A stretch of DNA of 64,000 bases, from sequence record PZ583739.1; one strand, 5' to 3'. Of this stretch, positions 2,629 through 64,000 are shown one piece after another. The stretch is from a phage. A program made the translations under genes and the position numbers. The notes below the pieces were generated by a model. It was not told the DNA's origin, ran no database searches, and worked only from the letters and a program-made list of their open reading frames with translations. Each line of letters begins with the position of its first letter. Positions within the stretch are counted from its first letter, which is position 1.

Positions 2629-2997
2629 TTATGCGACTTTAATCCAATTATCTAAATTTAATTCACCCTTAGCTTTCATTTTTTCAATCAAATCATCAGC
2701 AGTAGTGCGACCATTTTGATACCATGTAACATCTTCAGAATAACCAGTTTCTTCATCTTCATAGGTCTTACAACGAATCTTACCAAGAATCAAAGTTTTC
2801 AGTTCGTAGGTATCACCAGTAAAAAAGTTTGTTACCATAATTTTCCAAGAGAAGTCATCAGAAGGACCTTCTGGAGTCATACAAGAAACGAATTCAAATT
2901 GTTCTTTATACAAGTGCCATTGCATTTCTTTAGTTTCAATGGCTTTGTAACCGTCGTGGTCTTTACCTTTGATGTATGAGTTAAGATTGATTTTCAT
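2629..2997 (-). CDS. hypothetical protein
   Basis: 122-aa ORF; conserved leader and CTGGAGAATAAAATG start context. Confidence 0.5.
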   Translation of the reverse strand: MKINLNSYIKGKDHDGYKAIETKEMQWHLYKEQFEFVSCMTPEGPSDDFSWKIMVTNFFTGDTYELKTLILGKIRCKTYEDEETGYSEDVTWYQNGRTTADDLIEKMKAKGELNLDNWIKVA

Positions 2998-3035
2998 TTT
3001 ATTCTCCAGTGTTTTATTGTGTAACTCAGTATGGA

Positions 3036-9333: not shown

Positions 9334-9683
9334 TTGGTGAGCTCCTGGAAGTCCCGGGCGAACTTATCAAAAGACTGATTAATCTGTTTTTCAACTAATT
9401 TAGGCTTCGCTACCACAACCTTAGTACGTTTTGCATCTGCACGGAGTTTATCATTTTCCTTCTGCAGAAGTTCAACATATTCCTGCCGCTCCTGGTCAAG
9501 GAGATTAATTTGATTAATTTGGTCTTTTACTGATTGCAGATTTTTCGCGTTATCTTCTGCAACTTTGGTGACCGCAGCCACCTCTGTCTTGAGATTATCT
9601 ACTTTTGCTTTTAGATAGAAACCACTACCAGCAGTTACTACCAGGGCGAGCATAAGCCCTGCAGTGAGATTACTTATTTGCAT
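9330..9683 (-). CDS. i-spanin-like protein (pseT.3 position)
   Basis: N-terminal TM helix (LMLALVVTAGSGFYL) followed by coiled-coil-like sequence; 117 aa. Confidence 0.6.
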   Translation of the reverse strand: MQISNLTAGLMLALVVTAGSGFYLKAKVDNLKTEVAAVTKVAEDNAKNLQSVKDQINQINLLDQERQEYVELLQKENDKLRADAKRTKVVVAKPKLVEKQINQSFDKFARDFQELTK

Positions 9684-10177
9684 AACTTGATGATTACCTC
9701 AACAATATCATCCTGGGATAAACCATTCAGGAGGATGTGATTTGTACTGTCAGACGCTGAAATGCGGAACTGATTACCAACTTCATCCGCCATATCATCC
9801 TGGGTTAACACTGGGTGTTTAATTCCCAGGCGGTGTTGAAGTGTCAGGGGTTCAACCACAACATAACAAACACATCCATTGATATGTACATTAGGTTGGG
9901 TCTGGTTAATGAACACTTCTGCATCATATTTAACCAAATGGTTCTTTAAGAATTCAACCATTTCAGGAACAGATTCATGCAGTGCTTCTTTCCGCTCTTC
10001 TGATTTTTTATCGCGATATTCTTTTTGTTTCGCCTTCAACTTTTTGTTAGAGGCGAGTTTTTTCCGCAGGTCAGTCATAAGACCAATTTTCTTGGTCCCT
10101 TTATAGACATAAATTCCGTCATGACGGTCACCATATTCATTGACAATCATTTCATTTGAAATCAGTTGCATATCCAT
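9674..10177 (-). CDS. alc: probable Alc-like protein (assigned by position and 167-aa length)
   Basis: start at ATG 10177 with SD GAGGAAAATATT; lies between rnlA and the spanins as in T4. Confidence 0.4.
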   Translation of the reverse strand: MDMQLISNEMIVNEYGDRHDGIYVYKGTKKIGLMTDLRKKLASNKKLKAKQKEYRDKKSEERKEALHESVPEMVEFLKNHLVKYDAEVFINQTQPNVHINGCVCYVVVEPLTLQHRLGIKHPVLTQDDMADEVGNQFRISASDSTNHILLNGLSQDDIVEVIIKLCK

Positions 10178-10190
10178 AATATTTTCCTCA

Positions 10191-10424
10191 TTAGTAGCGG
10201 TTATAACCCCGGGGACCAAAAGAGTTGGCACCCAGGCGCTCATCTTTCTTTTTGGCTCTTGCTCTAAACCCGGAATCACCTGTTTGAGCTTTCAGTTCTT
10301 TTAACAATTTGGCCTTTAGGTCAGTAATGAAACCAATCCGGCGGTCTCCCTTATAGACATAGATTCCATCATTTCTGTCACCATATGCCTTTGTAACTCT
10401 GTCATTTGTAATTAAGTTTAACAT
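10191..10424 (-). CDS. small protein paralogous to the N-terminal module of the downstream alc-like gene
   Basis: 77 aa from ATG 10424; shares YGDRxDGIYVYKGxxxIGxxTDLxxKL with the 9674-10177 product. Confidence 0.4.
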   Translation of the reverse strand: MLNLITNDRVTKAYGDRNDGIYVYKGDRRIGFITDLKAKLLKELKAQTGDSGFRARAKKKDERLGANSFGPRGYNRY

Positions 10425-10454
10425 GTTTTGGTCCTCATCAGTAGTTGATGGAAC

Positions 10455-10488
10455 CATTATGTATAGAAAGAAGGGGCTTGTACACCCC
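10455..10488 (-). promoter_or_regulatory. composite terminator hairpin / early promoter
   Basis: hairpin GGGG-cttgtaca-CCCC (10473-10488) follows rnlA; its loop carries the GTGTACAA -35-like motif, CATAAT at 10456-10461 rc. Confidence 0.4.
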
Positions 10489-10494
10489 TTTTTA

Positions 10495-11631
10495 TTATTC
10501 AGGAAGGATTACTTCCGCCTGGTAGTCTAACGGAATGTAAAGTTTATGATTTTTAAGGAAAACTTTATTGATTTGAGCAATCGTTTGTTCAGTTTCCTGT
10601 GGGCGTTGATAGGTGTTCATTAATACGGAGAACAATCCCGGATATGGTTTACATAACTCTTGACCTTTAATCGCAAACTCGCGACGGTCTTTTCCTGCTA
10701 ACTGTTTTTGTGCATCAAGCAACAGTCCAAGAGTGTTGGACAGATAATCCAGATGTGTTGCAGTAAAGGCAGTAACTTTTTCACGAGCATAAGTATCGCC
10801 AGTAAACATGGCAATAACATCATCCGCGCCGCCAGCAACAACAACTTCAAACAGTCGCTCATTATTATTAATGGAGTCTTTAGTATGATGCAGAGCACAA
10901 TACCATTCTGTTTTCATCTTGAACTTCTGACCGTTAGCCATCTCATAGACGAAGCCTTCAATCTCTTTCATACCGCGAACATTCTCAATGGTTGCCGGGT
11001 CATATGCTTCAACCAGGAAAGGACGAAGCGCTGCATCTTTGAACAGCTCCTGATAAGGAATATATTCACCAGTTTCATTATGACGAACGTTCAGTAAAAT
11101 CAGGTCACGTTCCTGGTAAGGCAAAACAATGCGGTTGGTCGGTGCAACATATTCCATGTTGCATGTATAACCAGCTTCAGTGATTTCAGTCACACGAGCC
11201 CTGAATGCACTGCGATGTTCTTGTTTAAACACCTGCAAGGATTCAGCTGCTTGGGAGCTTTTGATTGACCCTTTGGATTTAAAGGCGATATTGGTCTGGT
11301 CCATATAAGTGGAAACCAAACTACCATCAGCTTTTGCAGTAACCAGGACAACTTCATCAAGGTTAAGGTCCATGGTCATTGGATTCTCACCCAGATTAAA
11401 GAATTTTTCCATAGGACGAGCAGCAATGCGAACTGGACCATTGTCATCCATTTCAAACATAATGCCACGGCACTCCAGCGCATCATCAAGGAGCCAATCA
11501 CTATAGGAAGCATAGTTATAGCTAAAGATGCGGAACTTAGTTTCAAATGGAGAAACAAAATCCGTATAGAAAAACTTACCTTTATCAGATTCGGCGCAAA
11601 GCTTCATTAAGTTATCATATAATTCAATCAT
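10495..11631 (-). CDS. rnlA: RNA ligase 1
   Basis: 378 aa; ...FFYTDFVSPF...FRIFSYNYASYSDWLLDDALECRGIMFEMDDNGPVRIAARPMEKFFNL... matches T4 gp63 as remembered. Confidence 0.9.
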   Translation of the reverse strand: MIELYDNLMKLCAESDKGKFFYTDFVSPFETKFRIFSYNYASYSDWLLDDALECRGIMFEMDDNGPVRIAARPMEKFFNLGENPMTMDLNLDEVVLVTAKADGSLVSTYMDQTNIAFKSKGSIKSSQAAESLQVFKQEHRSAFRARVTEITEAGYTCNMEYVAPTNRIVLPYQERDLILLNVRHNETGEYIPYQELFKDAALRPFLVEAYDPATIENVRGMKEIEGFVYEMANGQKFKMKTEWYCALHHTKDSINNNERLFEVVVAGGADDVIAMFTGDTYAREKVTAFTATHLDYLSNTLGLLLDAQKQLAGKDRREFAIKGQELCKPYPGLFSVLMNTYQRPQETEQTIAQINKVFLKNHKLYIPLDYQAEVILPE

Positions 11632-18220: not shown

Positions 18221-18460
18221 TCACGCTTTCTTAGCGACTTTCCAGTCAGCTTTAAATTGGTCAACATCAGAGTGGTGAATCCAGAAACCAGATGAGCTAC
18301 CATCTTCATAAAGAGGACAACCATCACACTCATCTTTCCAACCCATCGCACATAAAGTTTCTTCAGCTTTTTCCAGGGCTTCTGGATTGTTACCCTGGAT
18401 TGTAAAGTACCATTTGCCTTTAACTTCTGAATCTTTGATGCTCTCACGTTGTAATTTCAT
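18221..18460 (-). CDS. hypothetical protein
   Basis: 79-aa ORF; its TGA stop lies inside the SD of the downstream gene. Confidence 0.45.
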   Translation of the reverse strand: MKLQRESIKDSEVKGKWYFTIQGNNPEALEKAEETLCAMGWKDECDGCPLYEDGSSSGFWIHHSDVDQFKADWKVAKKA

Positions 18461-18498
18461 TTTATTCTCCAGTGTTTTAGTTGTTAACTCAGTATGGG

Positions 18499-19879: not shown

Positions 19880-19914
19880 TTTTATTTCCTCAGTTGTTAT
19901 CAGTAGTTGATGGA

Positions 19915-23218: not shown

Positions 23219-26200
23219 ATGGCCGATATTTTAAAACCAGCATTCAGAGCAACATCCGGTCTCGATGCTGCTGGTGAGAAAGTCATTAATGTCGCAAAAG
23301 CTGATTACTCAGTTTTATCAGACGGCGTTAACGTAGGTTTCTTTATAGAAGAAAACACAATTCAACAATATGATGCGACGCGCGGATACAAAAAGAACTT
23401 TGCGGTTATTAATGATAACCGTATTTGGGTTGCTCAACGTGATATTCCGGCACCAGCTGGAGCATTTACCCCTCAGTATTGGTTAGCAACTCGTACTGAC
23501 CCTAAATGGGAAACTGTTGCATCTCCAACTCGTCAGCTTAGCTCCGGGGAATTTATCGCAGTCGACTCAGCTGCAAGCTTTACCACATTTACATTGCCTC
23601 CGAACCCGACTGATGGTGATACCATCGTTATTAAAGATATCGGCGGTAATACCGGTTATAATGAAATTAAAGTTCAATCGAGCAATGTGCCTGGTCAAGG
23701 TAACCAAAAGATTGTTCGCTTTGGTAATCAGTATCCGGAAATTTTAATTACCAAACCATTCTCTTATAACATGCTTATCTTTTCAAACCGCTTATGGCAA
23801 TTTTGGGAAGCTGGCAACGAAGAACGTGGCATCAGAATAGAACCATCGACAGGTCGTTTCCATGCACAAGCTGGCGACTTTATTATGCGTCGTTATACAA
23901 CTGGTGCACCGATTACTTTCATTCTTCCTAAGTATGCAAACCAGGGTGATATTGTCAAATCTGTTGATATCGATGGCATGGGACCAACGTTCCACCTGAT
24001 GGTTGAAACCTTTGACACCAGTTCCAGTCTTGGGAAAGCTGGCCAGCATCAAATGGAATTCCGTACCACAGGTGATGGTTTCTTCGTTTATGATGCTGCC
24101 GAAAAACTCTGGCATGTTTGGGACGGTGATTTTAAAACTCGTCTTCGCGTTATTCGCGACAGCGTTAAACTTTTACCAAACGAAAGTGTCATTGTATTTG
24201 GCGAAGATAACTCAACTCCGGCAACGATTAATATCGATTTGCCAACTAATGTTTTGCAAGGCGATATTGTTAAGATTGCGCTGAACTATCTCCGTAAATC
24301 GCAGACTGTTAATATAAGAGCTGCTGTTGGCGATAAGATTGCAACTGACATTAAATTGCTGCAATTCCCTAAACGTTCCGAGTATCCACCAGATACAACT
24401 TGGGTGATGGTTGATTCATTGACCTTTAATGGCAACATCAGTTATACTCCGGTTATTGAATTATCATATGCAGAAGATGCAGTGTCTGGAACAAGTTATT
24501 GGGTTGTCGCTCAGAACGTCCCGACTGTCGAACGAGTTGACTCATTAAATGATTCCACGCGTACACGTCTTGGTGTTATTGCTCTGGCAAACCAGACTCA
24601 GGCAAACGTTGACCATGAAAATAACCCAGAAAAAGAACTCGCAATTACCCCTCAGACTTTAGCCAACCGTGTTGCTAAAGAGAACCAACGAGGCATTGCC
24701 AGAATCGCAACGACTGCTCAAGTAAATCAGAACAGTGATTTTGCATTTGTTGATGATGTAATTATTTCTCCGAAAAAACTCAATGAACGTACGGCAACAG
24801 AAACGAGACGCGGGCTCGCAGAACTCGCCACACAGCAAGAAACCGATGCGGGTGTAGATGATACCACAATTATAACTCCAAAGAAACTGCAAGCTCGCCA
24901 GGGCTCAGAATCGCTATCCGGTATTGTAACTTACGTTTCAACGACTGGTGCAACTCCTGCTGCTTCGCGTGAATTAAATGGTACAAACGTTTATAATAAA
25001 AATACGGTTAATCTGGTTGTTTCTCCGAAAGCTCTTGACCAGTACAAAGCTACTTACACCCAACAAGGTGCGGTTATTCTTGCGGTTGAAAGTGAAGTAA
25101 TTGCTGGTACTTCTCAATCTGGATGGGCAAACGCAGTCGTTACTCCAGAAATGTTGCATCGCAAAACTGCTCTTGATTCCCGTATCGGTTTAATCGAGAT
25201 TGCAACTCAAGTAGAAACAGATGCAGGAACCGATTATACCAGAGCTGTGACTCCTAAAACGTTAAATGACCGTAAAGCATCAGAAACGTTAACCGGCATA
25301 GCCGAGATTGCTACGCAATCAGAATTTGATACTGGAACTGATGATACTCGTATCTCAACTCCATTAAAAATTAAAAATAGATTTAATAATACTGCTCGTA
25401 CTTCTGTTAATGCATTAAGTGGTTTAGTAGAAACAGGGACGCTCTGGGACCATTATAGCCTGAATATTCTTGAAGCAAATGAGACTCAGCGTGGTACGGC
25501 AAGATTAGCAACTCAGGGTGAAGTCAATACCGGCACTGACGATAAAACAATCGTTACCCCGCTTAAATTGATGTCGAAAAAAGCCACTGAAAATGCCGAA
25601 GGTATTGTTCGCATCGCGACAAACGCAGAAGCAACAGCAGGTACATCAAAAGTCTTGGCCATCAGTCCGTCAGCGCTGAAATATATTGCACAAACGGAAA
25701 CAACCTGGGAAGCATCTGAAACCCTACGTGGATTTGTTCGTTTATCTTCTGGTACAGCTACTTCGGCCGCAACTACAACGACTGGTGCAGGATTTACATA
25801 TGCAAATGGCGTGTATACTCCGGACCCAAGTAAACTGGTTAGCTACGCAAAATCTGGATATGCAGTTTCACCTTACGAATTAAACCGCGTATTGCAAAAC
25901 TTCCTACCGATAAATGCGATGGCTGTTAATGCTGAAAAACTGGATAACCTTGATTCGACCCAGTTTATTCGTCGTGATATTGCTCAGACTGTTGAAGGTG
26001 TGTTAACTCTTACCAAACAGACAAATATATCTGCTCCGGTTGTATCGACGAGCACTGCAGTGTTTACTGATGTAACGGCTGGCACTTCGACGTTCGGAAC
26101 TGTGAACGTTGTTAACGGAACTAACAAGTGGAAAATCACCGCTCCTTCCACCGGAACGACAATGACTATTGGCGATACGACTAACGTATTGACATTAAAC

Positions 26201-27175
26201 ACCGCCTCGGGTAATGCTGCTGTACTGAACAACCTTAGCGCCGGAAATGATGTTCAAGCCAAAAATAATTACGTTCTAAATGGTCGTACTATCGCAACCA
26301 CAACGGGTGAAGCTTCTGGTGCAACTCTGGCTCTGGGTGATAACTCGCAGAATTTAGTGCTTAAAACTCTTGATGCTGGTAATATCATAGCAAATGGTGG
26401 CGGTGCATTTAAAGTCCTGACCGAGAAAAACGCTGTTGAGATTGTAGATAGAAACTTTGTTAACCAAGGCGGTGATACAATGTCTGGTGTGCTCCATGTG
26501 AATGCTCCGGTCCGTGTATTCGGTACGAAACCAAGTCTTATCGCACAAGCTCCGACTGCAGATACTGTTGGCTTCTGGTCTGTCGATATCAATGATGAAC
26601 CGACTTATAGTCAGTTCCCTGGTTATTGGACAATGAAGTTAAAACGTCAGGTAAACATTGATACAGTTCAAACTAAACCTGCTGGGGTAACTGATGAAGT
26701 TTGGAATGCTTCTGGTTGGTTAACTGAAAATGGAACTTTCGCCTCGCCTGTTATTCGTTATCGTAATGACGATGGTACACTCGGTGATGAAGTATTAGGT
26801 AGCTCTGGCCAAAAACTGCGCGGAACCTGGTTTGACTATTCGGTTCGTGATAAGGAAGTTAAATACCCTGGTACGTTAACTCAGTTTGGTAATACATTGG
26901 ATTCATGTTATCAGGATTGGGTGTGTTATCCAACTGGATTGAACGGTGGTACTATTCGTTATACTCGTACATGGCAGAAAAATAAATCTGCATGGACGAC
27001 TTTTGCAATGGTTTACACCGCGGATAACCCTCCGTCTGCAGAGGATGTTGGTGCATTACCGGCCGACAACACAACAATGGGGAACTTAACCATTCTCGAT
27101 TGGTTGCGTATCGGTAACGTGCGCATCATCCCAGACCCGACCACTAAATCCGTTAAGTTTGAATGGGTTGAATAA
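23219..27175 (+). CDS. 34: long tail fibre proximal subunit gp34
   Basis: 1318 aa; N-terminus and C-terminal ...GNLTILDWLRIGNVRIIPDPTTKSVKFEWVE match T4 gp34 as remembered. Confidence 0.92.
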   Translation: MADILKPAFRATSGLDAAGEKVINVAKADYSVLSDGVNVGFFIEENTIQQYDATRGYKKNFAVINDNRIWVAQRDIPAPAGAFTPQYWLATRTDPKWETVASPTRQLSSGEFIAVDSAASFTTFTLPPNPTDGDTIVIKDIGGNTGYNEIKVQSSNVPGQGNQKIVRFGNQYPEILITKPFSYNMLIFSNRLWQFWEAGNEERGIRIEPSTGRFHAQAGDFIMRRYTTGAPITFILPKYANQGDIVKSVDIDGMGPTFHLMVETFDTSSSLGKAGQHQMEFRTTGDGFFVYDAAEKLWHVWDGDFKTRLRVIRDSVKLLPNESVIVFGEDNSTPATINIDLPTNVLQGDIVKIALNYLRKSQTVNIRAAVGDKIATDIKLLQFPKRSEYPPDTTWVMVDSLTFNGNISYTPVIELSYAEDAVSGTSYWVVAQNVPTVERVDSLNDSTRTRLGVIALANQTQANVDHENNPEKELAITPQTLANRVAKENQRGIARIATTAQVNQNSDFAFVDDVIISPKKLNERTATETRRGLAELATQQETDAGVDDTTIITPKKLQARQGSESLSGIVTYVSTTGATPAASRELNGTNVYNKNTVNLVVSPKALDQYKATYTQQGAVILAVESEVIAGTSQSGWANAVVTPEMLHRKTALDSRIGLIEIATQVETDAGTDYTRAVTPKTLNDRKASETLTGIAEIATQSEFDTGTDDTRISTPLKIKNRFNNTARTSVNALSGLVETGTLWDHYSLNILEANETQRGTARLATQGEVNTGTDDKTIVTPLKLMSKKATENAEGIVRIATNAEATAGTSKVLAISPSALKYIAQTETTWEASETLRGFVRLSSGTATSAATTTTGAGFTYANGVYTPDPSKLVSYAKSGYAVSPYELNRVLQNFLPINAMAVNAEKLDNLDSTQFIRRDIAQTVEGVLTLTKQTNISAPVVSTSTAVFTDVTAGTSTFGTVNVVNGTNKWKITAPSTGTTMTIGDTTNVLTLNTASGNAAVLNNLSAGNDVQAKNNYVLNGRTIATTTGEASGATLALGDNSQNLVLKTLDAGNIIANGGGAFKVLTEKNAVEIVDRNFVNQGGDTMSGVLHVNAPVRVFGTKPSLIAQAPTADTVGFWSVDINDEPTYSQFPGYWTMKLKRQVNIDTVQTKPAGVTDEVWNASGWLTENGTFASPVIRYRNDDGTLGDEVLGSSGQKLRGTWFDYSVRDKEVKYPGTLTQFGNTLDSCYQDWVCYPTGLNGGTIRYTRTWQKNKSAWTTFAMVYTADNPPSAEDVGALPADNTTMGNLTILDWLRIGNVRIIPDPTTKSVKFEWVE

Positions 27176-27183
27176 GAGGTAAT

Positions 27184-28314
27184 ATGGAAAAATTTATGGC
27201 AGAGTTTGGACAAGGATACGTCCAAACGCCAGTTATATCAGAAAATAATGCCGTTAAATTTAAAATGAGTATAGCAGGGAGCTGTACTCTTTCCACGGTG
27301 AAATCGTATATCAAATTTCAGGATGAACAAATCGGACCAACTACTTTTGGCAATGGTTTGACTCTATTAGAAATTGATACAACTACGAATAAAATTGTTA
27401 ACACGAAAAACTATTCATTGACCAGCACACATGATGTAATCAGTCAGGCATTAATCACCTTTGTGGAATCTGTTCCAGCTGGAAGATTGATTGCTTTTAT
27501 TTCTTCTGGGAAACTAAATGCCTCGCAAACATTAATTGACTGGCTTCGTAAATGTGGCTCAAGAGCATTCCCCGAGAAATGGCTGATTGATAAAGTTGAT
27601 ACATCGTACTCGGCTTTTTACATAACCGGCCGGAACGTAATTGTTTCGGAGCATGTTAAGTATAATGACGGGAAGTTAGTTGAGGATGTTTCGACTCCGC
27701 TTGAAGTCGTTTATGATACCTTTAGTGATATAGGAGCAACAGGCTATCCTGTGCGCATAACGGAAGACGAGAGCACGTATTCATCAACAGGTGATGGAAC
27801 ATCAACCTCAATTAGAAGGTTCCCCACAGAGGACCTGGTGACTCCTATGAGCACATATAACCTTTTACCTTTGGATGTGCTTTACCTGAAGTTTCAGATG
27901 TCATTTGACGCTGAACTGAAAGCCGCCGGGACTGTAAGGACTTCGGTTCGATTCTTTAAAAGTCCTAGCACTTCTCCGATATCAAATACAAACATCGATA
28001 TTGCAGCAAACGTTCCAGCTGGTGCATGGGTAAGTTTCGAAAGATATGTTGAGATTCCAGCGGGAGCCGATGGCTTTACAGTAGTAACATCAAGGACTGT
28101 AGCTGTGGGAACTGGGTCAATACGTAATATTGTTATTGGTGAGATAACCAGAGGTGACTCGGCATTCAAACCAGCTGAATTTGGTGTCAACGGCATAAGG
28201 ATGTCATATGCAAACGATGCAACAAATACAGGCAATACAATTGTAACATTACCAGATGCACAAGCTCCGAGAGCCGGCAAGATATACGCAGCCGAACTAC
28301 GAGAAAAACAATAG
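27184..28314 (+). CDS. 35: long tail fibre hinge protein gp35
   Basis: 376-aa ORF immediately after 34, SD GAGG; position and size as T4 gp35. Confidence 0.8.
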   Translation: MEKFMAEFGQGYVQTPVISENNAVKFKMSIAGSCTLSTVKSYIKFQDEQIGPTTFGNGLTLLEIDTTTNKIVNTKNYSLTSTHDVISQALITFVESVPAGRLIAFISSGKLNASQTLIDWLRKCGSRAFPEKWLIDKVDTSYSAFYITGRNVIVSEHVKYNDGKLVEDVSTPLEVVYDTFSDIGATGYPVRITEDESTYSSTGDGTSTSIRRFPTEDLVTPMSTYNLLPLDVLYLKFQMSFDAELKAAGTVRTSVRFFKSPSTSPISNTNIDIAANVPAGAWVSFERYVEIPAGADGFTVVTSRTVAVGTGSIRNIVIGEITRGDSAFKPAEFGVNGIRMSYANDATNTGNTIVTLPDAQAPRAGKIYAAELREKQ

Positions 28315-28336
28315 GACTCTTCGGAGTCCTTTTTTC
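28314..28336 (+). terminator. rho-independent terminator after gene 35
   Basis: GGACTC-ttcg-GAGTCC followed by TTTTTT. Confidence 0.6.
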
Positions 28337-28338
28337 GT

Positions 28339-28346
28339 TATAAATA
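28339..28346 (+). promoter_or_regulatory. late promoter (TATAAATA) for gene 36
   Basis: exact TATAAATA directly after the terminator, about 35 nt before the gene 36 ATG. Confidence 0.6.
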
Positions 28347-28381
28347 CAAAATATCATATGCCGGTTGAAGAGGACTTATAA

Positions 28382-29029
28382 ATGGCAGATTTAAAACTAG
28401 GCTCAACAGCCGGAGGTTCGGTCCTCTGGCACCAGGGTAATTTCCCATTAACACCAGTCAGTAATGACTTATATTTCAAAACTTATAAAATTTATTCCGA
28501 ATATAACAAGCCACAAGCAGTCGATAACGATTTCGTTTCTAAAGCTCTTGGTGGTAATTATAAAGCAAACGTATATTTTGAACAAGGCCTGACATTTAAT
28601 GATTCAAATGGTTACGGGATTAAGTTGGGGGCGAGAACGGGCGGTGCACCATTTACAGCATCTTTCCGTATTAAAGGGCCGTTTGGATTTGAGACTGAAA
28701 CGGGAACACCATTCGTTATTTTTGACCCTGACACTACGACAGGAGCAAAACGTCTTACTGTTATGGGTGATACGTTAGCTCGACAGATTTATGATGAAAC
28801 AGGACGTGTATTTTCTCCAGGGAATACTCCGTCAAAAGCTCAAGTTGGTCTTAGTAATGTAACTAACCAGCAACAGGTGGAACTAAATAATAGTACATTG
28901 CAAACAATGACAGGTAACTTGTCAGCACCTAATTTCTTCTCTAGGAACCCAGCATCAGACCCGGCTCACGTGCCCCGTTTTGACCAAATCGTTCTTAAAG
29001 ACTCCGTACAAGATTTTGGATATTATTAA
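28382..29029 (+). CDS. 36: long tail fibre distal connector gp36
   Basis: 215-aa ORF between 35 and 37; MADLKLGSTAGGSVLWHQGNFPL... Confidence 0.8.
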   Translation: MADLKLGSTAGGSVLWHQGNFPLTPVSNDLYFKTYKIYSEYNKPQAVDNDFVSKALGGNYKANVYFEQGLTFNDSNGYGIKLGARTGGAPFTASFRIKGPFGFETETGTPFVIFDPDTTTGAKRLTVMGDTLARQIYDETGRVFSPGNTPSKAQVGLSNVTNQQQVELNNSTLQTMTGNLSAPNFFSRNPASDPAHVPRFDQIVLKDSVQDFGYY

Positions 29030-29037
29030 GAGGCATT

Positions 29038-32000
29038 ATGGCTACTTTAAAACAAATACAATTTAAAAGAAGTAAGGTTGCCGGCGTTCGCCCGGCGCCA
29101 ACAGTTCTTGCCGAAGGTGAACTGGCTATCAACTTGAAAGACCGCTTACTTTTTACTAAAGATGACACCGGCGCCATCATTGACCTTGGCTTTGCTAAAG
29201 GCGGTAATATTGATGGTAACGTTATTCATAACGGTAACTACACCCAAACCGGTGCCTATACTATAGCCGGAGCTATTTCACAAACGTCTGGACATTTTAC
29301 TACTACTGGTAATATAATAGCAACCGGTGATGTCACAGCAAAAGCCCGTTTAATGACAGATAATGGTGAAGTTCTTGTACGAGGTACAGGAACCACTCAT
29401 GTTCGATTCCAGGATTTGGCTGATGCTCGAGAAAGAGGTATAATTTATTCTCAAAACCGTACTGGGGATACCAAGCAAATCTTGAACGTTCGTGTTCAGG
29501 ATTACACTAATTCAACATCTAATATTTTTGCATTCAACGGCGATGGTTTATTTTATGCTCCGTCTATTTCCAGCGGAACATCGGTGAAATCTCCAGTAAT
29601 TTATACTAATACCGTTGATACTGGTAATAAATCAGCTCTTGATTATGATATATCTTCATTAGCAAATAATAATCCTGCAAGTTCAAGCGCAACAGCTATT
29701 AACTATCTTAGAATAAGTAGACACGCTGTCGATGGAATTAGGTATCGTGAACTTAATAATGTAAATGGTATTTCATGGCATTCTATTTCTACAGCCGGAA
29801 CAGCTAAGTATCTTTGGTCATTTAATGCAGATGGCGATGTCAAAACATCAAATTCTCTTTCCGTTGGCCTACCTGGGGATAGCTCAGGATACTCAACATT
29901 AGGTCCGTCTGCTATCGCACTTGGTGACAATAACACAGGTTTGAAATGGAAACAAGACGGTCAGTTCCATACAATTAATAATGGAGCTTATACTTTACTT
30001 ACATCTCCAACTGAAGTTACAAGCCTTAAACAGTTAGTTGCGGGTTATTCAACCAACGGTTCTGATTTAATTCTTCCTACAACTCAAAACTATCCATTAG
30101 TTATTGTTAATACTACTAATGATAAAAACGGCTTCGGCGACGGTCAAACTCTTTTAGGTTACCACCAAAGCGGCAAATATCACCATTATTTTCGTGGCAA
30201 AGGTGTAACAAACGTTAACACCGATGGTGGGTTGTTGGTTACTCCTGGCAACGTTGAAGTCCGTGGTGGTTCGGTTAATATTGATGGTCTCAGTAATGCT
30301 TCGACAGTGCTTTTTAAAGGAAATACAACAGGAAGTAGTTCAGTTGATAATATAGAGCTCAAAGTTTGGGGTGACACTTTTAATACAGTAGATGGTTCTC
30401 GTAAAAACGTAGTGGAAATATCCGATGCTACTAGCTGGATGCACTATATTCAACGAACTACAGCAGGTAAAGTCGAATCCTATTTAAATGGTACCATGAA
30501 TGTAATTGAAGGATTGTCTGTCAATCAAGATACATCCTTAAAACGCAATCTGTATGTTTCCAATGAAATTAAAGTTCGCGCGGCGAGTGGTCTTCGTATT
30601 TGGAACGATAAGTACGGTGTTATTTTTCGAAATTCAGAAGACCAGCTGCATATTATCCCAACCAATGTTAATGCCGGCGAAAGTGGCGGATTAGGTCCAT
30701 TACGCCCATTAAGTATTATGTTAGACACGGGTCTGGTTAAAATCCCTAACTTAGAAGCAGACCAGGTTTCTTTTAAGGGTAGCGGCGTATTAGAATTCCC
30801 TAATAGTAGCGGCGCATCTTATGCCAACCAGAACACGACTAAAGCTCCGTTGTATCAAGCACTTGATGCTGCGACTCAAGCATTTTATCCTATTACTAAG
30901 CAGAAAAATATCGATTCGAATGTAACTGTTACGCAAGGTATGGACCGAGCTACGAGCGAATACCGAATTGTTGCCCAAGGTGATTTGCTTGGCGATGGCG
31001 TTACAACCGGATTAAAATACTGGCGCTTTACCAAAGAAGGTAACTTCATGGCCCAGAACCGCTTATATGCCGGTACAGCTTATATGAATACCGATGGTAA
31101 TATTGCAGGTTCTATTTGGAAAAAGTATAGCGGTGCTACTAACCTTGACGCAGCGGTGAATACTCGTGTAGGTAAAGGCGGCGATACAATGACAGGTAAA
31201 TTGGTCATTGATGCTCCAGGCGATCCTTTAGTATTAAAAACAACCGCAGGTAATAGCTCGCATATCCGTTCTGATGTAAATGGTACCGGCAACTGGTATG
31301 TTGGTAAAGGTGGCGATGATAACGGAATAGCTCTTTACAGTTATGCTACCAACTCGGGTATGTACATCACTAATGATGGGGCTTTCAACGTAGAACTTTC
31401 TGGTGCTGGCTTAGCAATGCAGATGAATTATTATCGCATGTATGTTAATGGCCGAGCATGGGTTAATACACAAGGTCATGGTTACGGAAACCAATGGCAA
31501 ACAGAAGCTCCTTATTTCGTCGACTTTGGTGAATCTGTTCCTAAAGATAGCTATATGCCAATTATCAAAGGAAAAAGCACTCTAATTACCGACGGATATT
31601 CTACTAAAGCAGACTTTGGTATTATTCGATTAGGTGGAGCTGCTACTTGGGGTTCTGCTGTTATTCGTGTGGGTTCTGCCGAAAGCGGCGATGCAAGCCA
31701 TCCTAATGCAATATTTGTATTTCAGGCCAATGGTGATTTTGTTGCACCTGCCGGTTTACGAGCCAGAGCTAACCTAGGCGTGGGCACAATCCCGGTATGG
31801 GGCGGCGCATCCATTGCCATTGGGGACGATGACACCGGCTTAGTCCATGGTGGTGACGGTCGAATTAATATGTATGCTAACTCGCAACATATTGCAAGCT
31901 GGGGAGCCGGTTATCAGATTCATGAAGGTCTTTGGGATACCCATGGGGCTTTGTGGACTGAAACAGGAAAAGCTATTATTTCTTATGGGCATTTAGTCCA

Positions 32001-32382
32001 ACAAAGTGATGCCTATTCTACATATGTCCGTGATGTGTATGTCCGTTCTGATATTCGTGTTAAAAAAGACCTTGTTAAATTTGAAAATGCTTCTCGGAAG
32101 CTTTCTAAAATTAACGGCTACACATATATGCAGAAACGTGGAACTGACGAAGAAGGTAATCAGAAATGGGAACCTAATGCTGGTTTAATTGCTCAAGAAG
32201 TTCAAGCTATTTTACCTGAATTGGTTGAAGGCGACCCTGATGGTGAAGCTTTACTTCGTTTGAACTATAACGGTGTAATTGGTTTAAATACAGCTGCAAT
32301 CAATGAGCACACTGCAGAAATAGCAGAATTGAAATCAGAGATTGAAGAACTTAAAGCTTTAGTTAAATCATTGTTAAAATAA
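29038..32382 (+). CDS. 37: long tail fibre distal subunit gp37 with C-terminal chaperone-like module
   Basis: 1114 aa; [43 protein letters not shown]... matches gp37 N-terminus; C-terminal SDIRVKKDL...GYTYMQK... then heptad-like [22 protein letters not shown]. Confidence 0.88.
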
Positions 32383-32387
32383 TAAGA

Positions 32388-32401
32388 GGGGCTTCGGCCC
32401 C
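32388..32401 (+). other. intergenic GC hairpin between genes 37 and 38
   Basis: GGGGC-ttcg-GCCCC directly before the gene 38 SD; no strong T-run, so probably not a full terminator. Confidence 0.35.
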
Positions 32402-32413
32402 TTGGAGGTTTAT

Positions 32414-33196
32414 ATGGCAGTAGTAGGACCGTGGGTAGGGTGGTCTGCGAGGGTACAAACTGGGGACCCTTGGATGGGCGGCGCTGCCCAACGATTGAGA
32501 ATGGGTATTCCGTTTTGGATGAGTAATATGGTAGGTCGGTCTGTTGAAATAATTCACACACTTGGAGCCGACCATAACTTTAACGGGCAATGGTTTAGAG
32601 ACCGTTGTTTTGAAGCCGGTGCTGCCCCTATTGTGTTTAATATCACAGGTGATTTAGTATCTTATACTAAAGATGTTCCGTTGTTCTTTATGTATGGCGA
32701 TACCCCTAATGAATACGTTACTTTGAATATTCACGGCGGGGTCCATATGTGGGGCCGTGGTGGTAACGGTGGGACCCGTGTTTGGGTAGCGGGTACAAAT
32801 GGTGGTGATGTAATTCAAAACGACATTGGTGGCAGACTCCGTATCTGGAACTATGGCGTTATAGCTTCAGGGGGCGGCGGCGGTGCCGGATGTGCTTCAA
32901 ATAACTCTTGGCTTGTGGCGGGTACAGCTGGTGGCGGTGGCGGTAGACCATATGGATTAGGTGGTACTAATGGCGCCGTAAACCCAGGCGGCAACGCTAG
33001 TTATACCGGACCAGGTGGCGGTGGTAGCTTTGGTGGACAGTGGGGTGGTGGTAATGGCGGCGACGCGGGTGGGGCTGGTGGCGGCGCTTACGGACGAAGC
33101 GTTACATACGGCTCACAAGGCGGAGCTGGACGAGCTGTATTCGGAAGTTCTCCTTCATGGGGCGCTACAGGCACTATCTACGGCTCCTGGCTATAG
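32414..33196 (+). CDS. 38: T2-type receptor-binding adhesin gp38 (glycine-rich motifs)
   Basis: ATG 32414 after SD GGAGG (track start 32402 is TTG); [11 protein letters not shown]...; C-terminal half has poly-Gly motifs separated by variable segments. Confidence 0.85.
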
Positions 33197-33207
33197 TACA
33201 TAAGCGC

Positions 33208-33215
33208 TATAAATA
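33208..33215 (+). promoter_or_regulatory. late promoter (TATAAATA) for holin gene t
   Basis: exact TATAAATA about 20 nt upstream of the t ATG. Confidence 0.55.
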
Positions 33216-33233
33216 TCTTTAAAGGAGAAAAGT

Positions 33234-33887
33234 ATGGAACCAAAAGTAGGAATATCAATACCCGACCTACTTTTTGGACTTCTTGATAGAATTTTTAAAG
33301 ATAATGCGACCGGGAAAGTTGTTTTTTCCCGGGTACTAGTTATTGTTCTATTATTTTTAATGGCGGTAATCTGGTATAAAGGTGATGCACTTTTAGATGC
33401 GTACAGGGATGCTTCATATGCCTCATACACAGAAATGATAAGGCAAGACCAGGACAACAGATTTAAAATTGCAGCTATCGAGCAAATCCAGATAGTCCAC
33501 TCGTCAAGTGGGGCAGACTTTACAGCAATATATTCTTTTAGACCAACTAACCTTAACTACTTTGTGGATATGGTGGGATACGAGGGGATATTGCCTGATA
33601 CAGTCGACGAAAAAAATTTAGGTGGGTTTCCAATAGATAAAACTTCGGCGGAATATTTGGCGGGGGTTAATGGTAATTATTTTGAATCCAGTACGGAATC
33701 TGTATTCTTACCAACAAAGAAAAAAAGCAGCTTCTCATATATGTTCAGCTGCCCATTCTTTAATTTGGAAAACGTTTATGCAGGTACAGTCTCACTGTAC
33801 TGGTATAAGCAAAAACCTAACCTTGGTTTTGATAGGCTTTCTGCTATGTGTGGACAAGCAGGTCGTACGCTTGGGCGTACACGTTAG
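33234..33887 (+). CDS. t: holin
   Basis: 217 aa; ...DLLFGLLDRIFKDNATGKV..., ...LNYFVDMVGYEG..., C-terminal ...MCGQAGRTLGRT match T4 holin T as remembered. Confidence 0.9.
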   Translation: MEPKVGISIPDLLFGLLDRIFKDNATGKVVFSRVLVIVLLFLMAVIWYKGDALLDAYRDASYASYTEMIRQDQDNRFKIAAIEQIQIVHSSSGADFTAIYSFRPTNLNYFVDMVGYEGILPDTVDEKNLGGFPIDKTSAEYLAGVNGNYFESSTESVFLPTKKKSSFSYMFSCPFFNLENVYAGTVSLYWYKQKPNLGFDRLSAMCGQAGRTLGRTR

Positions 33888-34159
33888 AATCCGGAGGTAT
33901 ACATCATAAGATAACGGTGTATATCTTCGAATCCTTCGTTAAATTGTTCAATGATTTGTTCAATTTCATCTTCAGATAAACTTTTAAACAACTTGTTAAA
34001 CGATACATTGTTTAACTCATTCCCATTCTCATTTCTCAATCCCAACTCATTCAAAAACGCGATAAACACATCACGCTTCATCGTAATATCTTCCCGGTCG
34101 GTTTTAATCAAAATTGAAGTTATAGTAACAATTTCAGAAACGATTTCAAATTTAGTCAT
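33884..34159 (-). CDS. asiA: anti-sigma70 factor AsiA
   Basis: 91 aa; ...ITSILIK..., ...FIAFLNE..., ...DEFNEGFEDIHRYLMMYT match T4 AsiA as remembered. Confidence 0.8.
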   Translation of the reverse strand: MTKFEIVSEIVTITSILIKTDREDITMKRDVFIAFLNELGLRNENGNELNNVSFNKLFKSLSEDEIEQIIEQFNEGFEDIHRYLMMYTSGF

Positions 34160-34217
34160 TTTAATTTACTCAAGTATTCAATAAGACATTCAATTATTCA
34201 GTAAGGGTATTATACTA

Positions 34218-34382
34218 TTATTCCTCTGGGTTGTACACATGATTTTCCATGTGTACAACATATTCCTGATACATCTGTTCAACTGGTTCCTGGAACTTAA
34301 AATCAGCTCCAAGGAATTCCTCAAAGCAAGCCAGCTCGCGTGTACGTTGACCGGTGATGGTGTTCTCTAAGTTATGACTCAT
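34218..34382 (-). CDS. small acidic protein (54 aa), not in ORF track
   Basis: ATG 34382, TAA 34218; MSHNLENTITGQRTRELACFEEFLGADFKFQEPVEQMYQEYVVHMENHVYNPEE; contains a perfect 12-bp inverted repeat. Confidence 0.25.
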   Translation of the reverse strand: MSHNLENTITGQRTRELACFEEFLGADFKFQEPVEQMYQEYVVHMENHVYNPEE

Positions 34383-36188: not shown

Positions 36189-36416
36189 TTATCCCTTAAT
36201 AGATTTCATATAATTTGATGCATATGATTGTACCACAGTACGTTTCATATGGGAAGTAGAAACAATCACATCAATCGCTTGTTTACGTTCTTCTTTAGAG
36301 TTTGCCAGTTTGAACATGTCAAAGTAGTAATAACAAGCTTCTTTATTAGATTTGAATTTAGCGTTAATGTATTCTTGACCTTCATTCTGTTGTGCAGTAA
36401 ACATTTTATTCTCCAA
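36189..36416 (-). CDS. hypothetical protein
   Basis: 75-aa ORF with conserved CTGGAGAATAAAATG start context. Confidence 0.45.
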   Translation of the reverse strand: MENKMFTAQQNEGQEYINAKFKSNKEACYYYFDMFKLANSKEERKQAIDVIVSTSHMKRTVVQSYASNYMKSIKG

Positions 36417-39648: not shown

Positions 39649-39793
39649 AATATTTTCCTCAGAAGTTAAAGAATACACGTACATGGTCAATCATAAAAAC
39701 GATTGGGAAAATGCTCAATACCATTAACAACACAAACATGTTCCAAATGACTTTAAGTAACTTTTTCATAATCATCTCCAGCAGTTGATAGGT

Positions 39794-40191: not shown

Positions 40192-40347
40192 TCATGCATA
40201 ACGATTGTATGTATTTTTGCGACACGCGTAAAATTGACGCTCAGTAACTGCAAAACTTTTTCCGCGCTGTTGCATTAATTTAAAAAATTCAGTAATATCG
40301 CCATTAACTTCAAGGTATAAAGTCATTGCATATTGAGCAGGTTTCAT
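40192..40347 (-). CDS. small protein (51 aa), not in ORF track
   Basis: ATG 40347 after conserved CTGGAGAATAAA context; MKPAQYAMTLYLEVNGDITEFFKLMQQRGKSF... Confidence 0.3.
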   Translation of the reverse strand: MKPAQYAMTLYLEVNGDITEFFKLMQQRGKSFAVTERQFYACRKNTYNRYA

Positions 40348-40383
40348 TTTATTCTCCAGTCTGTTTGGTAACTCAGTATGGAA

Positions 40384-40426: not shown

Positions 40427-40702
40427 TTAATTGTGCATTTGTTCTTTAACTTCTTTATATGCGCCAACTGCATTCACGACCCCAGTAAAATCTGCAGTCC
40501 CACGATATAGATAGAAAGCAATTTCAGTCAGGTGGTATACTTCAAATTCTGAAAGATAAATGATAACGTCATAATATGCAACTTGACCCTGGACTTCGTT
40601 GAATGCCACATCAAAAATTTCATGGGTTGGAAAATTGATGTTGTTGTTTTTGAGTGCTTGGATAAGGATTTGTTTGATGTTGTGAGTAGTAACGTGTTCC
40701 AT
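40427..40702 (-). CDS. hypothetical protein
   Basis: start reset to ATG 40702 (MEHVTTHNIKQ...) with SD GAGGA. Confidence 0.4.
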   Translation of the reverse strand: MEHVTTHNIKQILIQALKNNNINFPTHEIFDVAFNEVQGQVAYYDVIIYLSEFEVYHLTEIAFYLYRGTADFTGVVNAVGAYKEVKEQMHN

Positions 40703-40749
40703 GATAATGTCCTCATTTGTTGGTATGAGGACATTATTACACAGTTGGT

Positions 40750-50633: not shown

Positions 50634-50669
50634 GGGGTCATTATACTCTGACCCCAAGAGTTTGTACAC
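50634..50669 (-). promoter_or_regulatory. early promoter with stem-loop (PeSL-like)
   Basis: near-identical copy of the 38882-38917 element: GGGGTCA / TGACCCC around TATAAT, GTGTACAA upstream. Confidence 0.5.
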
Positions 50670-51686: not shown

Positions 51687-51714
51687 TTTGTTATCCTCAT
51701 CAGTAGTTGATGAG

Positions 51715-55806: not shown

Positions 55807-55834
55807 TTTATTATCCTCATCAGTAGTTGATAGG

Positions 55835-56411: not shown

Positions 56412-56470
56412 AATGGTCTCTCTGTTGTAAGAAAGACCATTATGTCATTAGGAGGGGAGTAAGTAAACTA

Positions 56471-62028: not shown

Positions 62029-62029
62029 A

Positions 62030-62380: not shown

Positions 62381-62381
62381 A

Positions 62382-62819: not shown

Positions 62820-62820
62820 T

Positions 62821-63114: not shown

Positions 63115-63134
63115 TTCAATCTCCTCAGTAGTTG

Positions 63135-63172: not shown

Positions 63173-63174
63173 TG

Positions 63175-63378: not shown

Positions 63379-63696
63379 TTAGATTTCCTCACAGAAGGCC
63401 CAGTCAGCGTGATAAACTGTTGCGCCTTTAGTATCATTTAAACAAACCACGTCAACAGGTGCAATCACACGATAAAGACGGGGTTCTCCTCCATATGAGC
63501 GAGCTGCTCTTCCTGCATAGATACGTGCCAAACCAATATCTTCAGTAAAAAACACACGCCCTAAATTTTTCTTACGCCCAACTTCTGACAGAACACCAGT
63601 TGCATCAGGAGGGCAAAGCATATTTTGGATTCCAGCATTAGAGCTTGACCCATGATAATAAACTTTGTATTCTGCCTTGCAATCAATGGTTTTCAT
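63379..63696 (-). CDS. hypothetical protein, unassigned; candidate counter-defence gene
   Basis: 105 aa; stop abuts the dmd ATG; MKTIDCKAEYKVYYHGSSSNAGIQNMLCPPDATGVLSEVGRKKNLGRVFFTEDIGLARIYAG...; own promoter cassette upstream. Confidence 0.5.
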   Translation of the reverse strand: MKTIDCKAEYKVYYHGSSSNAGIQNMLCPPDATGVLSEVGRKKNLGRVFFTEDIGLARIYAGRAARSYGGEPRLYRVIAPVDVVCLNDTKGATVYHADWAFCEEI

Positions 63697-63722
63697 TTTA
63701 TTCTCCAGTAGTTGATAGGGTC

Positions 63723-63755
63723 ATTATAACATAAGAAAAAGGGGCTGTAAGCCCC
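63723..63755 (-). promoter_or_regulatory. composite terminator hairpin / early promoter
   Basis: hairpin GGGGC-tgtaa-GCCCC (63741-63755) then T-run and TTATAAT on the minus strand, leader CCCTATCAACTACTGGAGAATAAA. Confidence 0.4.
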
Positions 63756-63767
63756 TTTTAAAATATT

Positions 63768-64000
63768 TTAAAATTTCATTTGAGCAGCAAGGTCGTCCAG
63801 GTCGCTCCTGTTGACCCTGGTTTGTCGATTCATTTCAGCCTGGCGATTCATCTCACCGGTGGCTTCTTTAACTGTAGGGCCTTGTTTAGGAGCCGAATCA
63901 TCATCAACCTCATACCAGCGCTGATTACCTTTCTTAACACCCATCTTGAATTTATTATAGTAGTTCTTATCACCATAACGAGACTTAAGCTGTTTGATTA
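63768..64000 (-). CDS. 3' end (C-terminal ~77 aa) of a gene running off the right edge; probably gene 41 helicase by synteny
   Basis: open frame ends ...VNRSDLDDLAAQMKF with TAA at 63768-63770; T4 places gene 41 after dmd. Confidence 0.4.
   Translation of the reverse strand, partial: IKQLKSRYGDKNYYNKFKMGVKKGNQRWYEVDDDSAPKQGPTVKEATGEMNRQAEMNRQTRVNRSDLDDLAAQMKF

Follow-up and report, generated by a model that had tools for sequence, protein, structure and literature searches.

Stem-loops over the -35 element of predicted early promoters at two gene junctions of a Gaprivervirus coliphage: probable PeSL-type cassettes

The material analyzed was a 64,000-nt stretch of the phage record PZ583739.1 (hereafter the window, in whose positions all coordinates are given). 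A 2 kb segment spanning the first of the two sites considered here shares 99.2% identity with Escherichia phage vB_EcoM_RZ (Straboviridae, Tevenvirinae, Gaprivervirus); from this similarity, the window phage is a T4-like coliphage of the genus Gaprivervirus, which is represented in GenBank by 34 close relatives. Every gene near the two sites is carried by the minus strand. At site 1, rnlA / gene 63 (10495..11631, minus) lies upstream of a 77-aa ORF whose Pfam match (PF17527, E 3e-10, covering positions 3-62 of 177) marks it as a paralogue of the Alc N-terminal third; full-length alc comes next. At site 2, the 3' end of gene 41 (replicative helicase), which aligns to the annotated gp41 in CJ20, SP18, VR7 and MN01, is followed by a 105-aa ORF and then by dmd and sp; the region between genes 41 and 61, into which this site falls, is a well-known variable (hyperplastic) region. 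Ortholog searches in IMG/VR returned 7 and 3 loci, the GenBank phage collection being far richer, and an Rfam search of the whole window gave zero family matches. The features of site 1, at the rnlA / 77-aa ORF junction, are the following.

10495..10497, minus strand: stop codon TAA of rnlA / gene 63 (RNA ligase 1), from the ORF at 10495..11631 and the annotation in the 99%-identical vB_EcoM_RZ
10489..10494, minus strand: A-run TAAAAA 5' of the stem, in the position of a terminator A-tract and of a UP-element or AT-rich promoter region, from the sequence and the family consensus
10473..10488, minus strand: hairpin GGGG-TGTACAAG-CCCC, from folding, a terminator-like call and conservation
10479..10484, minus strand: putative -35 hexamer TGTACA in the hairpin loop, from a consensus scan, fitting the family consensus GTGTACAA
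10465..10472, minus strand: interrupted U-tract TTCTTTCT, also the 5' portion of the promoter spacer, from the sequence
10456..10461, minus strand: putative -10 hexamer CATAAT, 17 nt from the -35, from a consensus scan
10439..10449, minus strand: conserved start region ATCAACTACTG, from family matches, with the predicted +1 at the A at 10449
10430..10455, minus strand: second predicted hairpin GGUUCCAUCA-acuac-UGAUGAGGACC, from folding (-11.9 kcal/mol)
10422..10436, minus strand: Shine-Dalgarno GAGGA (10436-10432) and start ATG (10424-10422) of the 77-aa ORF, from Pfam and the relatives' annotation

Site 2, at the junction of gene 41 and the 105-aa ORF, has a parallel set of features.

63768..63770, minus strand: stop codon TAA of gene 41, from the ORF listing and gp41 alignments
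63756..63767, minus strand: AT-rich run AATATTTTAAAA (UP-like region and A-tract), from the sequence
63741..63755, minus strand: hairpin GGGGC-TTACA-GCCCC, from folding and a terminator-like call with 10 pairs
63746..63751, minus strand: putative -35 hexamer CTTACA, its first C being the innermost stem base and TTACA the loop
63733..63740, minus strand: U-tract TTTTTCTT directly 3' of the stem, doubling as promoter spacer, with a positive rough terminator score
63723..63731, minus strand: putative extended -10 TGtTATAAT, 17 nt from the -35, from a consensus scan (TG present before the -10)
63706..63716, minus strand: conserved start region ATCAACTACTG, from family matches, with the predicted +1 at the A at 63716
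63694..63706, minus strand: GGAGAATAAAATG, holding the Shine-Dalgarno GGAG, a match to the RegB consensus and the start codon of the 105-aa ORF (ATG at 63696), from a motif search

Read on the minus strand, site 1 runs TAA-TAAAAA-GGGG-TGTACAAG-CCCC-TTCTTTCTATA-CATAAT-ggttcc-ATCAACTACTG-at-GAGGA-ccaaaac-ATG and site 2 runs TAA-AATATTTTAAAA-GGGGC-TTACA-GCCCC-TTTTTCTTATGT-TATAAT-gaccct-ATCAACTACTG-GAG-aataaa-ATG. The ATG at 10424-10422, annotated in CJ20, VR7 and ECML-359, is likely the true start of the 77-aa ORF. Site 2 perfectly matches the published RegB cleavage consensus GGAGRAYARAA (PMC3014915), which has six matches in the window, all on the minus strand, against 0.26 expected.

The GC-rich hairpins that a preliminary description had placed at 10473-10488 and 63741-63755 are indeed present there, with arms at 10473-10476 (GGGG) and 10485-10488 (CCCC) for site 1 and at 63741-63745 (GGGGC) and 63751-63755 (GCCCC) for site 2. 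A U:G closing pair brings the site 1 hairpin to 5 bp with a 6-nt loop. Including flanking A:U pairs, the RNA folds at -11.1 kcal/mol at site 1 (z -3.0) and at -16.3 kcal/mol at site 2 (z -3.9), and 0/200 shuffles were as stable in either case. A -35-like motif in the loop, with a -10 some 17 nt further on, had also been proposed; on the minus (coding) strand only, the loops contain TGTACA (site 1) and CTTACA (site 2), and the spacing to the -10 is exactly 17 nt at both.

On the minus strand, a consensus scanner called each site both terminator-like and promoter-like; GGGG-N3-9-CCCC occurs six times in the window against 1.4 expected. Generic sigma-70 matches were not above chance at either region (62 vs 53, and 74 vs 61, in shuffles), and the promoter status of the two sites therefore rests on an extended family motif, not on two hexamers. 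The strict pattern G[TC][GT]TAC[AT]-N15-17-[TC]A[TA][AT][AT]T has 16 minus-strand matches and a single plus-strand match, where 0.64 +/- 0.75 would be expected, a strand-specific excess of 25-fold. With looser members, this family comprises about 19 copies in 64 kb, on the same strand and each immediately 5' of an ORF, which can be summarized as GTKTACA-N17-YATAAT and which share an architecture of AAAAAG.a-GTGTACAA, N17, YATAAT, a conserved start region, a Shine-Dalgarno and an ATG (the consensus leading into the -35 reads AAAAAG.aGTGTACAA). A search for ATCAACTACTG returned six exact and two one-mismatch matches on one strand, against 1.2 expected, and seven of these eight lie behind promoters; the predicted start, 7 nt past the -10, is an A in 15/19 copies, as it would be at 10449 in site 1 and at 63716 in site 2. 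The core TKTACA-N17-YATAAT is close to the TTTACW-N17-TAYWAT of T4/PST early promoters (PMC4122927). From these features, we infer that the approximately 19 copies are the early, host-sigma-70 promoters of the phage.

It is scarcely credible that the two sites are plain, possibly bidirectional terminators whose loops happen to mimic a -35 element with no working promoter. The outcome of the generic scan and the plus-strand T-runs that both hairpins also possess would be consistent with such a chance resemblance, but it would have to extend to a likeness with about 17 other copies over roughly 70 nt (AAAAAG flank, -35, N17, YATAAT, ATCAACTACTG, Shine-Dalgarno and ATG) and to the strand-specific excess of the family. 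Both sites moreover stand immediately before genes with a strong Shine-Dalgarno, and no plus-strand gene there needs a terminator. A promoter reading on the plus strand was rejected, since that strand has no gene there and offers no usable -10, TATTAT at site 1 lying 7 nt past TTGTAC. T4 middle promoters carry a MotA box, defined as (a/t)(a/t)(a/t)TGCTTtA centered at -30 and about 12 bp from the -10 (PMC2988021); this class was also set aside, the site 2 candidate GGCTTACA being 17 bp from the -10, the wrong spacing, and site 1 having no TGCTT. Nothing relevant on VR7 promoters was found in the literature searched.

Nearly every promoter copy of the family carries a stem-loop, in variable position, and the best 40-nt fold averaged -13.9 kcal/mol at the 19 promoters vs -9.5 kcal/mol at same-strand random positions (Mann-Whitney p = 4e-6). 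The stem-loops are placed as follows.

Upstream of the -35, with a long T-run: 36483, 19947 and 3068 (GGGACC-UUCG-GGUCCC-type stems, then TTTTTTATTTT)
Around the -35: site 1 and site 2, and 34238 (-35 inside the 3' arm)
Between the boxes: 6703
Around the -10: 50669, 38917, 8939, 18531, 2624, 63172 and 39824
From the -10 to the Shine-Dalgarno: 56468, 40762 and 51747

These are all five of the positions published for PeSLs (promoter-early stem-loops), which were described in phi1/RB49 with five positional subclasses, one of them overlapping the -35 (Arbiol 2010, PMC2839356), and later extended to T4/PST and KVP40/nt-1 (Comeau 2014, PMC4122927). In phi1/RB49, PeSLs had terminator and promoter activity in lacZ reporters, one of the stem-loops terminating on par with rrnB T1, and mini-circles formed by recombination between PeSL copies have been shown for these phages only (PMC2839356).

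Both of our sites share the composition of PeSLs: an AT-rich region (AATAATAAAAA ahead of the site 1 promoter, AATATTTTAAAA at site 2), a sigma-70-like early promoter with a 17-bp spacer (TGTACA-N17-CATAAT and CTTACA-N17-TGtTATAAT), a stable polyG/polyC stem-loop within or near that promoter, and a Shine-Dalgarno and start codon, the whole being located between the upstream stop and the downstream ATG. As for PeSLs, the copies in the window are many (about 19) and dispersed, are conserved over roughly 70-100 bp and vary in stem-loop position, the published -35-overlapping subclass included; copies are found at breakpoints of ORF gain and loss in the hyperplastic region between genes 41 and 61, and half (degraded) copies are present in relatives. 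The hyperplastic or indel association applies to site 2; site 1, unlike PeSLs at breakpoints, lies between conserved genes, and no indels were seen there across 34 Gaprivervirus genomes. There are other differences from the published elements. The genus Gaprivervirus is outside both PeSL papers, the -35 consensus of the window (GTGTACA / GTTTACA) is nearer to the TTTACW of T4/PST than to the TTGACA of RB49, and, unlike in the PeSLs of the first 50 kb of RB49, the -35 here forms the loop of a very compact hairpin whose U-tract is the spacer. A scan of RB49 positions 1-50000 recovered the same positional classes as in the window; under strict criteria, this stretch contained zero compact U-tract terminators with the -35 as loop. 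Only one hairpin in it encloses the -35 plus the spacer, and looser criteria gave one case, upstream of regA. Packing the -35 as a terminator loop in exactly this way could therefore be less common than one would gather from the published text.

We consider it likely that both sites are PeSL-type cassettes of the subclass with the stem-loop over the -35, each combining a terminator or attenuator with an early promoter, and site 2 being a recombination joint as well. The composite of terminator and promoter envisaged in the preliminary description is supported by family membership and conservation, with a terminator anatomy (A-run, GC stem and T-run) lying over an early promoter of a conserved family; terminator and promoter activity in the window phage itself would be expected by analogy with phi1/RB49, which belong to another genus.

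Both elements share with the canonical Rho-independent terminators of E. coli and its phages a 4-6 bp GC stem with a short loop and a U-run on its 3' side, and the 5' A-run makes each a symmetrical, potentially bidirectional element. Compared with those terminators, both have a stem toward the shorter end and are fused to a promoter, and the site 1 U-tract is interrupted and not conserved. A rough terminator score (a d'Aubenton-Carafa-type formula, in which only the ranking is meaningful) was highest for the upstream-type terminators (about +30), followed by site 2 (about +20), the site 2 alleles of relatives (+7 to +14), site 1 (about -17), the CJ20 allele of site 1 (about -38) and the hairpins with the -10 in the loop (about -57). 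With its 5-6 bp GC stem, the UUUUUCUU that follows and its positive score, site 2 is probably an efficient intrinsic terminator.

All 34 Gaprivervirus records carry the 81-nt cassette of site 1 with 96-100% identity, and each genome has 3-5 matching places; the stem-loop is invariant in 8/8 relatives whose sequence was read; because it is invariant, it provides no evidence from covariation. The flanks of the stem vary. The A-run is five or six A long depending on the relative, the U-tract opens with TTCTTTC or TCCTTTC (a T-to-C change in several), and the tract in CJ20, ECML-359 and TH22 is TCCTTTCT vs TTCTTTCT in the window. As an intrinsic terminator, site 1 is borderline, with UUCUUUCU after the stem in the window, or UCCUUUCU in relatives, and a negative rough score. 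Given this weak, variable U-tract and the negative score, site 1 is probably a weak attenuator at best. The proposal that each hairpin ends a transcription unit can thus be kept, on sequence grounds, for site 2, but not for site 1 with its weak tract (TTCTTTCT or TCCTTTCT). The stem of site 1 begins 6 nt past the rnlA stop codon, and a ribosome terminating at that stop could hinder folding of the hairpin.

The second hairpin of site 1 has its 5' arm mostly upstream of the predicted +1 and contains the Shine-Dalgarno GAGGA in its 3' arm. The predicted probability that the stretch from the Shine-Dalgarno to the AUG is unpaired was 0.41 in the read-through RNA vs 0.76 in the promoter-initiated RNA; in this folding model, the hairpin would form in read-through RNA only, where it would mask the ribosome-binding site. 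A C-to-T change in relatives preserves a G:U pair in this hairpin. At the distant rnlA loci L005-L007 (protein identity about 50-57%), the promoter has been retained and overlaps the rnlA stop codon, and a stem-loop pairs the spacer with the Shine-Dalgarno (CCUCAUUUCGUU...AACGAAAUGAGG). Masking hairpins of this kind have been reviewed for the T4 genes e, soc, 49 and I-TevI (PMC3014915). Like them, the second hairpin and its analogues in L005-L007 pair the Shine-Dalgarno with sequence ahead of the start point of an internal promoter, and masking is predicted for read-through RNA only; unlike the T4 cases, where the internal promoter is late, the internal promoter at site 1 is of the early sigma-70 type. 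This likeness concerns the neighboring second hairpin at site 1, not the flagged hairpin over the -35, and is a matter of predicted folding. Over 19 promoters, the probability of an unpaired Shine-Dalgarno was 0.48 in read-through vs 0.64 in promoter-initiated RNA (p = 0.013), in a comparison biased by the greater pairing of longer RNAs and with about six of the 19 sites driving the difference; masking is not claimed here as a property of the whole family.

Relatives carry three alleles of the hairpin before the 105-aa ORF: GGGGC-TTACA-GCCCC (the window, RZ, CJ20, PSD2001, SP18, MN01, VR20, TH15, TH40 and EAWsc9), GGGGG-TGTACA-CCCCC (VR7) and GGGG-TGTACA-CCCC (VR25 and VR26), with folds of -14.3, -14.7 and -12.3 kcal/mol, respectively. 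Across these alleles, C:G, G:C or U:A occupies the fifth position of the stem; the -35 remains in the loop in all three, reading TGTACA in orthologues at an equal distance from the -10, and the 17-nt spacer to TATAAT is constant. That three differing alleles preserve the stem, the spacing and a -35 located in the loop argues for joint selection on stem and promoter. The alleles were folded one by one in place of a single-structure covariation count, a formal count having been dropped since alleles registered on the promoter shift the stem register by half a base. Before the same gene in TH54, a hairpin-less upstream half is joined to the same start region. In the Dhakavirus phages MX01 and AnYang, a terminator of its own (GGAGC-UUCG-GCUCC, then TTTTTTGTTTT) stands at the gene 41 junction, followed by GTTTACA-N17-TACTAT, with terminator and promoter side by side and without overlap. 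Judging from this arrangement, the logic of a terminator followed by a promoter is conserved at the gene 41 junction, and the overlap of the two is optional.

The surroundings of site 2 are mosaic. Two kb around it map to 2.2-3.1 kb in relatives, as 2-4 pieces; the match to vB_EcoM_RZ ends on the 5' edge of the hairpin, at position 63758 of the window; and zero, one or two ORFs lie between gp41 and the 105-aa ORF, depending on the phage. MN01 has two PeSLs in this interval. The first reads gp41 stop-AATATTTTTAAAAAA-GGGG-TGTACAAG-CCCC-TTGTCTTAGGA-CATAAT, with the same hairpin as site 1, and is followed by a 100-aa ORF and then by the second, AACAAA-GGGGC-TTACA-GCCCC. The sequence of the window, TH15, TH40 and EAWsc9, gp41 stop-AATATTTTAAAA-GGGG|C-TTACA-GCCCC, is the exact join of both MN01 PeSLs within AAAGGGG, the last AAA of AATATTTTAAAA and the GGGG of the stem (63758-63752) providing this microhomology at the indel junction, which amounts to 7 nt only. 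RZ, CJ20 and SP18 have ATAGTGTACAAGCCCC ahead of the 100-aa ORF, a half-hairpin in which the 5' arm has been replaced, with an extra ORF upstream, and Dhakavirus has the short arrangement of the window. By these comparisons, site 2 is a recombination joint at a breakpoint of ORF gain or loss, for which deletion and insertion are both possible, and its junctions provide base-level detail for the model of PeSL-mediated shuffling.

An alternative reading is that the promoters are real and the hairpins are not terminators, serving instead as protective or processing structures at 3' ends or mainly as recombination joints in DNA, with transcription largely continuing. This would be consistent with the weak, variable U-tract of site 1, with the location of the breakpoints in a hairpin arm and with the second hairpin of site 1, which would be pointless without read-through. 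Furthermore, most sister stem-loops have no U-tract, such as GGGGTCA-gagtataa-TGACCCC at 50669 and 38917, and the stem of these two shows compensatory changes relative to 8939, which implies selection for something besides classical termination. However, site 2 and its alleles have the form of a textbook terminator, combining a GC stem of 5-6 bp with a loop of 4-5 nt and the tract UUUUUCUU; the orthologous Dhakavirus junction has an unmistakable separate terminator (GGAGCTTCGGCTCC, then TTTTTTGTTTT), implying that termination is wanted after gene 41; and a PeSL stem-loop equaled rrnB T1 in a reporter (PMC2839356). We therefore regard this reading as unlikely for the pair of sites and retain that of PeSL-type cassettes with a terminator at site 2 and an attenuator at site 1.

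The preliminary description had further proposed that the arrangement couples termination efficiency to promoter access. In such a device, a terminating or paused polymerase would occlude the promoter, or a promoter-bound polymerase would act as a roadblock that boosts termination. The geometry is compatible with this: the release site would lie at about -21 to -28 from the predicted start, such that a terminating polymerase would cover the -35 to the -10, and some interference over this interval is conceivable. The overlap has also been kept at site 1 in all Gaprivervirus read, and at site 2 in all but TH54. On the other hand, sister promoters bear their stem-loop in any of five positions, the orthologous Dhakavirus junction is not overlapped, in TH54 a promoter half without a hairpin takes the place of the hairpin half before the same gene, and RZ-type phages tolerate a half-hairpin. 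Coupling is conceivable, but finds no support in these comparisons, and a dedicated device of this kind seems very improbable; with interchangeable stem-loop positions and the Dhakavirus arrangement, the overlap looks like a packing variant and not a dedicated regulatory device.

Termination works through an RNA hairpin, and promoter recognition through duplex DNA. In the PeSL-type reading favored here, the GC stem and U-run would end or attenuate, at the RNA level, the transcripts of the upstream core genes (gene 41 at site 2, rnlA at site 1), and at the DNA level the same duplex of about 45 bp would be a host sigma-70 early promoter, in which the A-run would take the position of an UP element, the loop would serve as the -35, the T-run as the spacer and YATAAT as the -10 at 17 bp. 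Transcription would start about 7 nt past the -10 within ATCAACTACTG, yielding a short leader with a strong Shine-Dalgarno. The overlap of hairpin and -35 would be one interchangeable packing among several, easy to evolve because TGTACA is palindromic and because the flanks of a terminator (A-run and T-run) suit those of a promoter. The repeated cassettes would act as recombination joints for the gain and loss of small ORFs, site 2 being one such joint, and at site 1 the attenuator would be backed by the second hairpin, hiding the ribosome-binding site solely in read-through RNA. A more speculative extension, to which we give little credence, is that the -35 within the terminator loop makes a minimal self-insulating joint, in which the AAAGGGG arm would be a preferred crossover, polymerase interference would make firing and read-through mutually exclusive, and the second hairpin of site 1 would silence leakage; if true, the embedding of the -35 would be more than compaction.

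Within about 45 bp, these cassettes would bring together a terminator, a promoter of host type and a joint for recombination, and they provide a clean, base-resolved case of ORF gain and loss at a PeSL joint in a further genus. No new mechanism is implied, the element class, the variable placement of its stem-loop and its role in modular shuffling having been published in 2010 and 2014. In practice, the cassettes could improve transcription-unit boundaries and start codons for Gaprivervirus and supply compact terminator-promoter parts for phage engineering. Useful by-products of the analysis are the base-resolved junction at site 2, the probable weak terminator and predicted masking hairpin at site 1, and several annotation corrections.

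Sequence comparison of the putative early promoters in the window, all of one minus-strand family of the PeSL (promoter-early stem-loop) type, groups them into leader families whose initial transcribed sequences are conserved. The conserved stretch comprises the first 11-17 transcribed bases, the start sites being predicted. Leader family 1, ATCAACTACTG, begins at the predicted +1, and leader family 2, ATACTGAGTTA(C/A)ACAA, lies 3' of four promoters.

10439-10449, minus, leader family 1
19901-19911, minus, leader family 1
39779-39789, minus, leader family 1
51701-51711, minus, leader family 1
55821-55831, minus, leader family 1
63126-63136, minus, leader family 1
63706-63716, minus, leader family 1
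3' of promoters at 36483, 18531, 3068 and 55110, leader family 2

The published strong cleavage consensus of RegB, GGAGRAYARAA, has six perfect matches in the window, compared with 0.26 expected by chance. All of them read GGAGAATAAAA and lie on the coding strand (6/6), and the five that were checked (all except 40347-40357) occupy the Shine-Dalgarno/start codon position. The gene downstream of site 2, the hairpin following gene 41, is among those with a match (63696-63706).

2557-2567, minus, RegB consensus
2997-3007, minus, RegB consensus
18460-18470, minus, RegB consensus
36404-36414, minus, RegB consensus
40347-40357, minus, RegB consensus
63696-63706, minus, RegB consensus

Other hairpins are predicted to engage a ribosome-binding site or an initiation codon in base pairing, the partner sequence lying at the -10 box or 5' of it.

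10430-10455, hairpin
56411-56445, hairpin
40702-40740, hairpin
L005-L007 (distant rnlA loci), hairpin directly after rnlA

Under this model, masking by these hairpins would be limited to read-through transcripts. They recall those of the T4 genes e, soc, 49 and I-TevI, although the internal promoter in the window is an early one.

Stem-loops lacking a U-tract enclose the -10 box at three further promoters and cannot act as classical terminators.

50640-50669, minus, -10-enclosing stem-loop
38888-38917, minus, -10-enclosing stem-loop
8910-8939, minus, -10-enclosing stem-loop

Two read GGGGTCA-gagtataa-TGACCCC, whereas that at 8939 reads GGGAGCA-gagtataa-TGCTCC, with both sides altered at two stem pairs (T:A to G:C and G:C to A:T); judged from such sequences, the stems are under selection. 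Another promoter has its -35 in the 3' arm of an inverted repeat that sits within the 3' end of ORF 34218-34382.

34209-34262, minus, inverted repeat TTGTACACATG-gaaaat-CATGTGTACAA, -16.6 kcal/mol

The small ORF 3' of site 1, the hairpin following rnlA (10191-10457, minus), adjoins the full alc (9677-10177) and is a truncated alc paralogue, because its Alc family match is restricted to positions 3-62 of 177 residues. Its start is an ATG within the -10 box (10457) in the vB_EcoM_RZ RefSeq record, whereas CJ20, VR7 and ECML-359 annotate the Shine-Dalgarno-preceded ATG at 10424, which is the more likely start.

Close relatives differ in the genes carried by the gene 41-sp segment (62000-64000, compared with L009-L012 and L016-L023), with zero, one or two ORFs (one goF-like) between gp41 and the 105-aa ORF, and zero or one between dmd and sp.

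GC skew is positive at about 24000-34000 and negative over the rest of the window, suggesting a plus-strand gene block, its putative genes probably late or structural, with minus-strand early regions on both sides.
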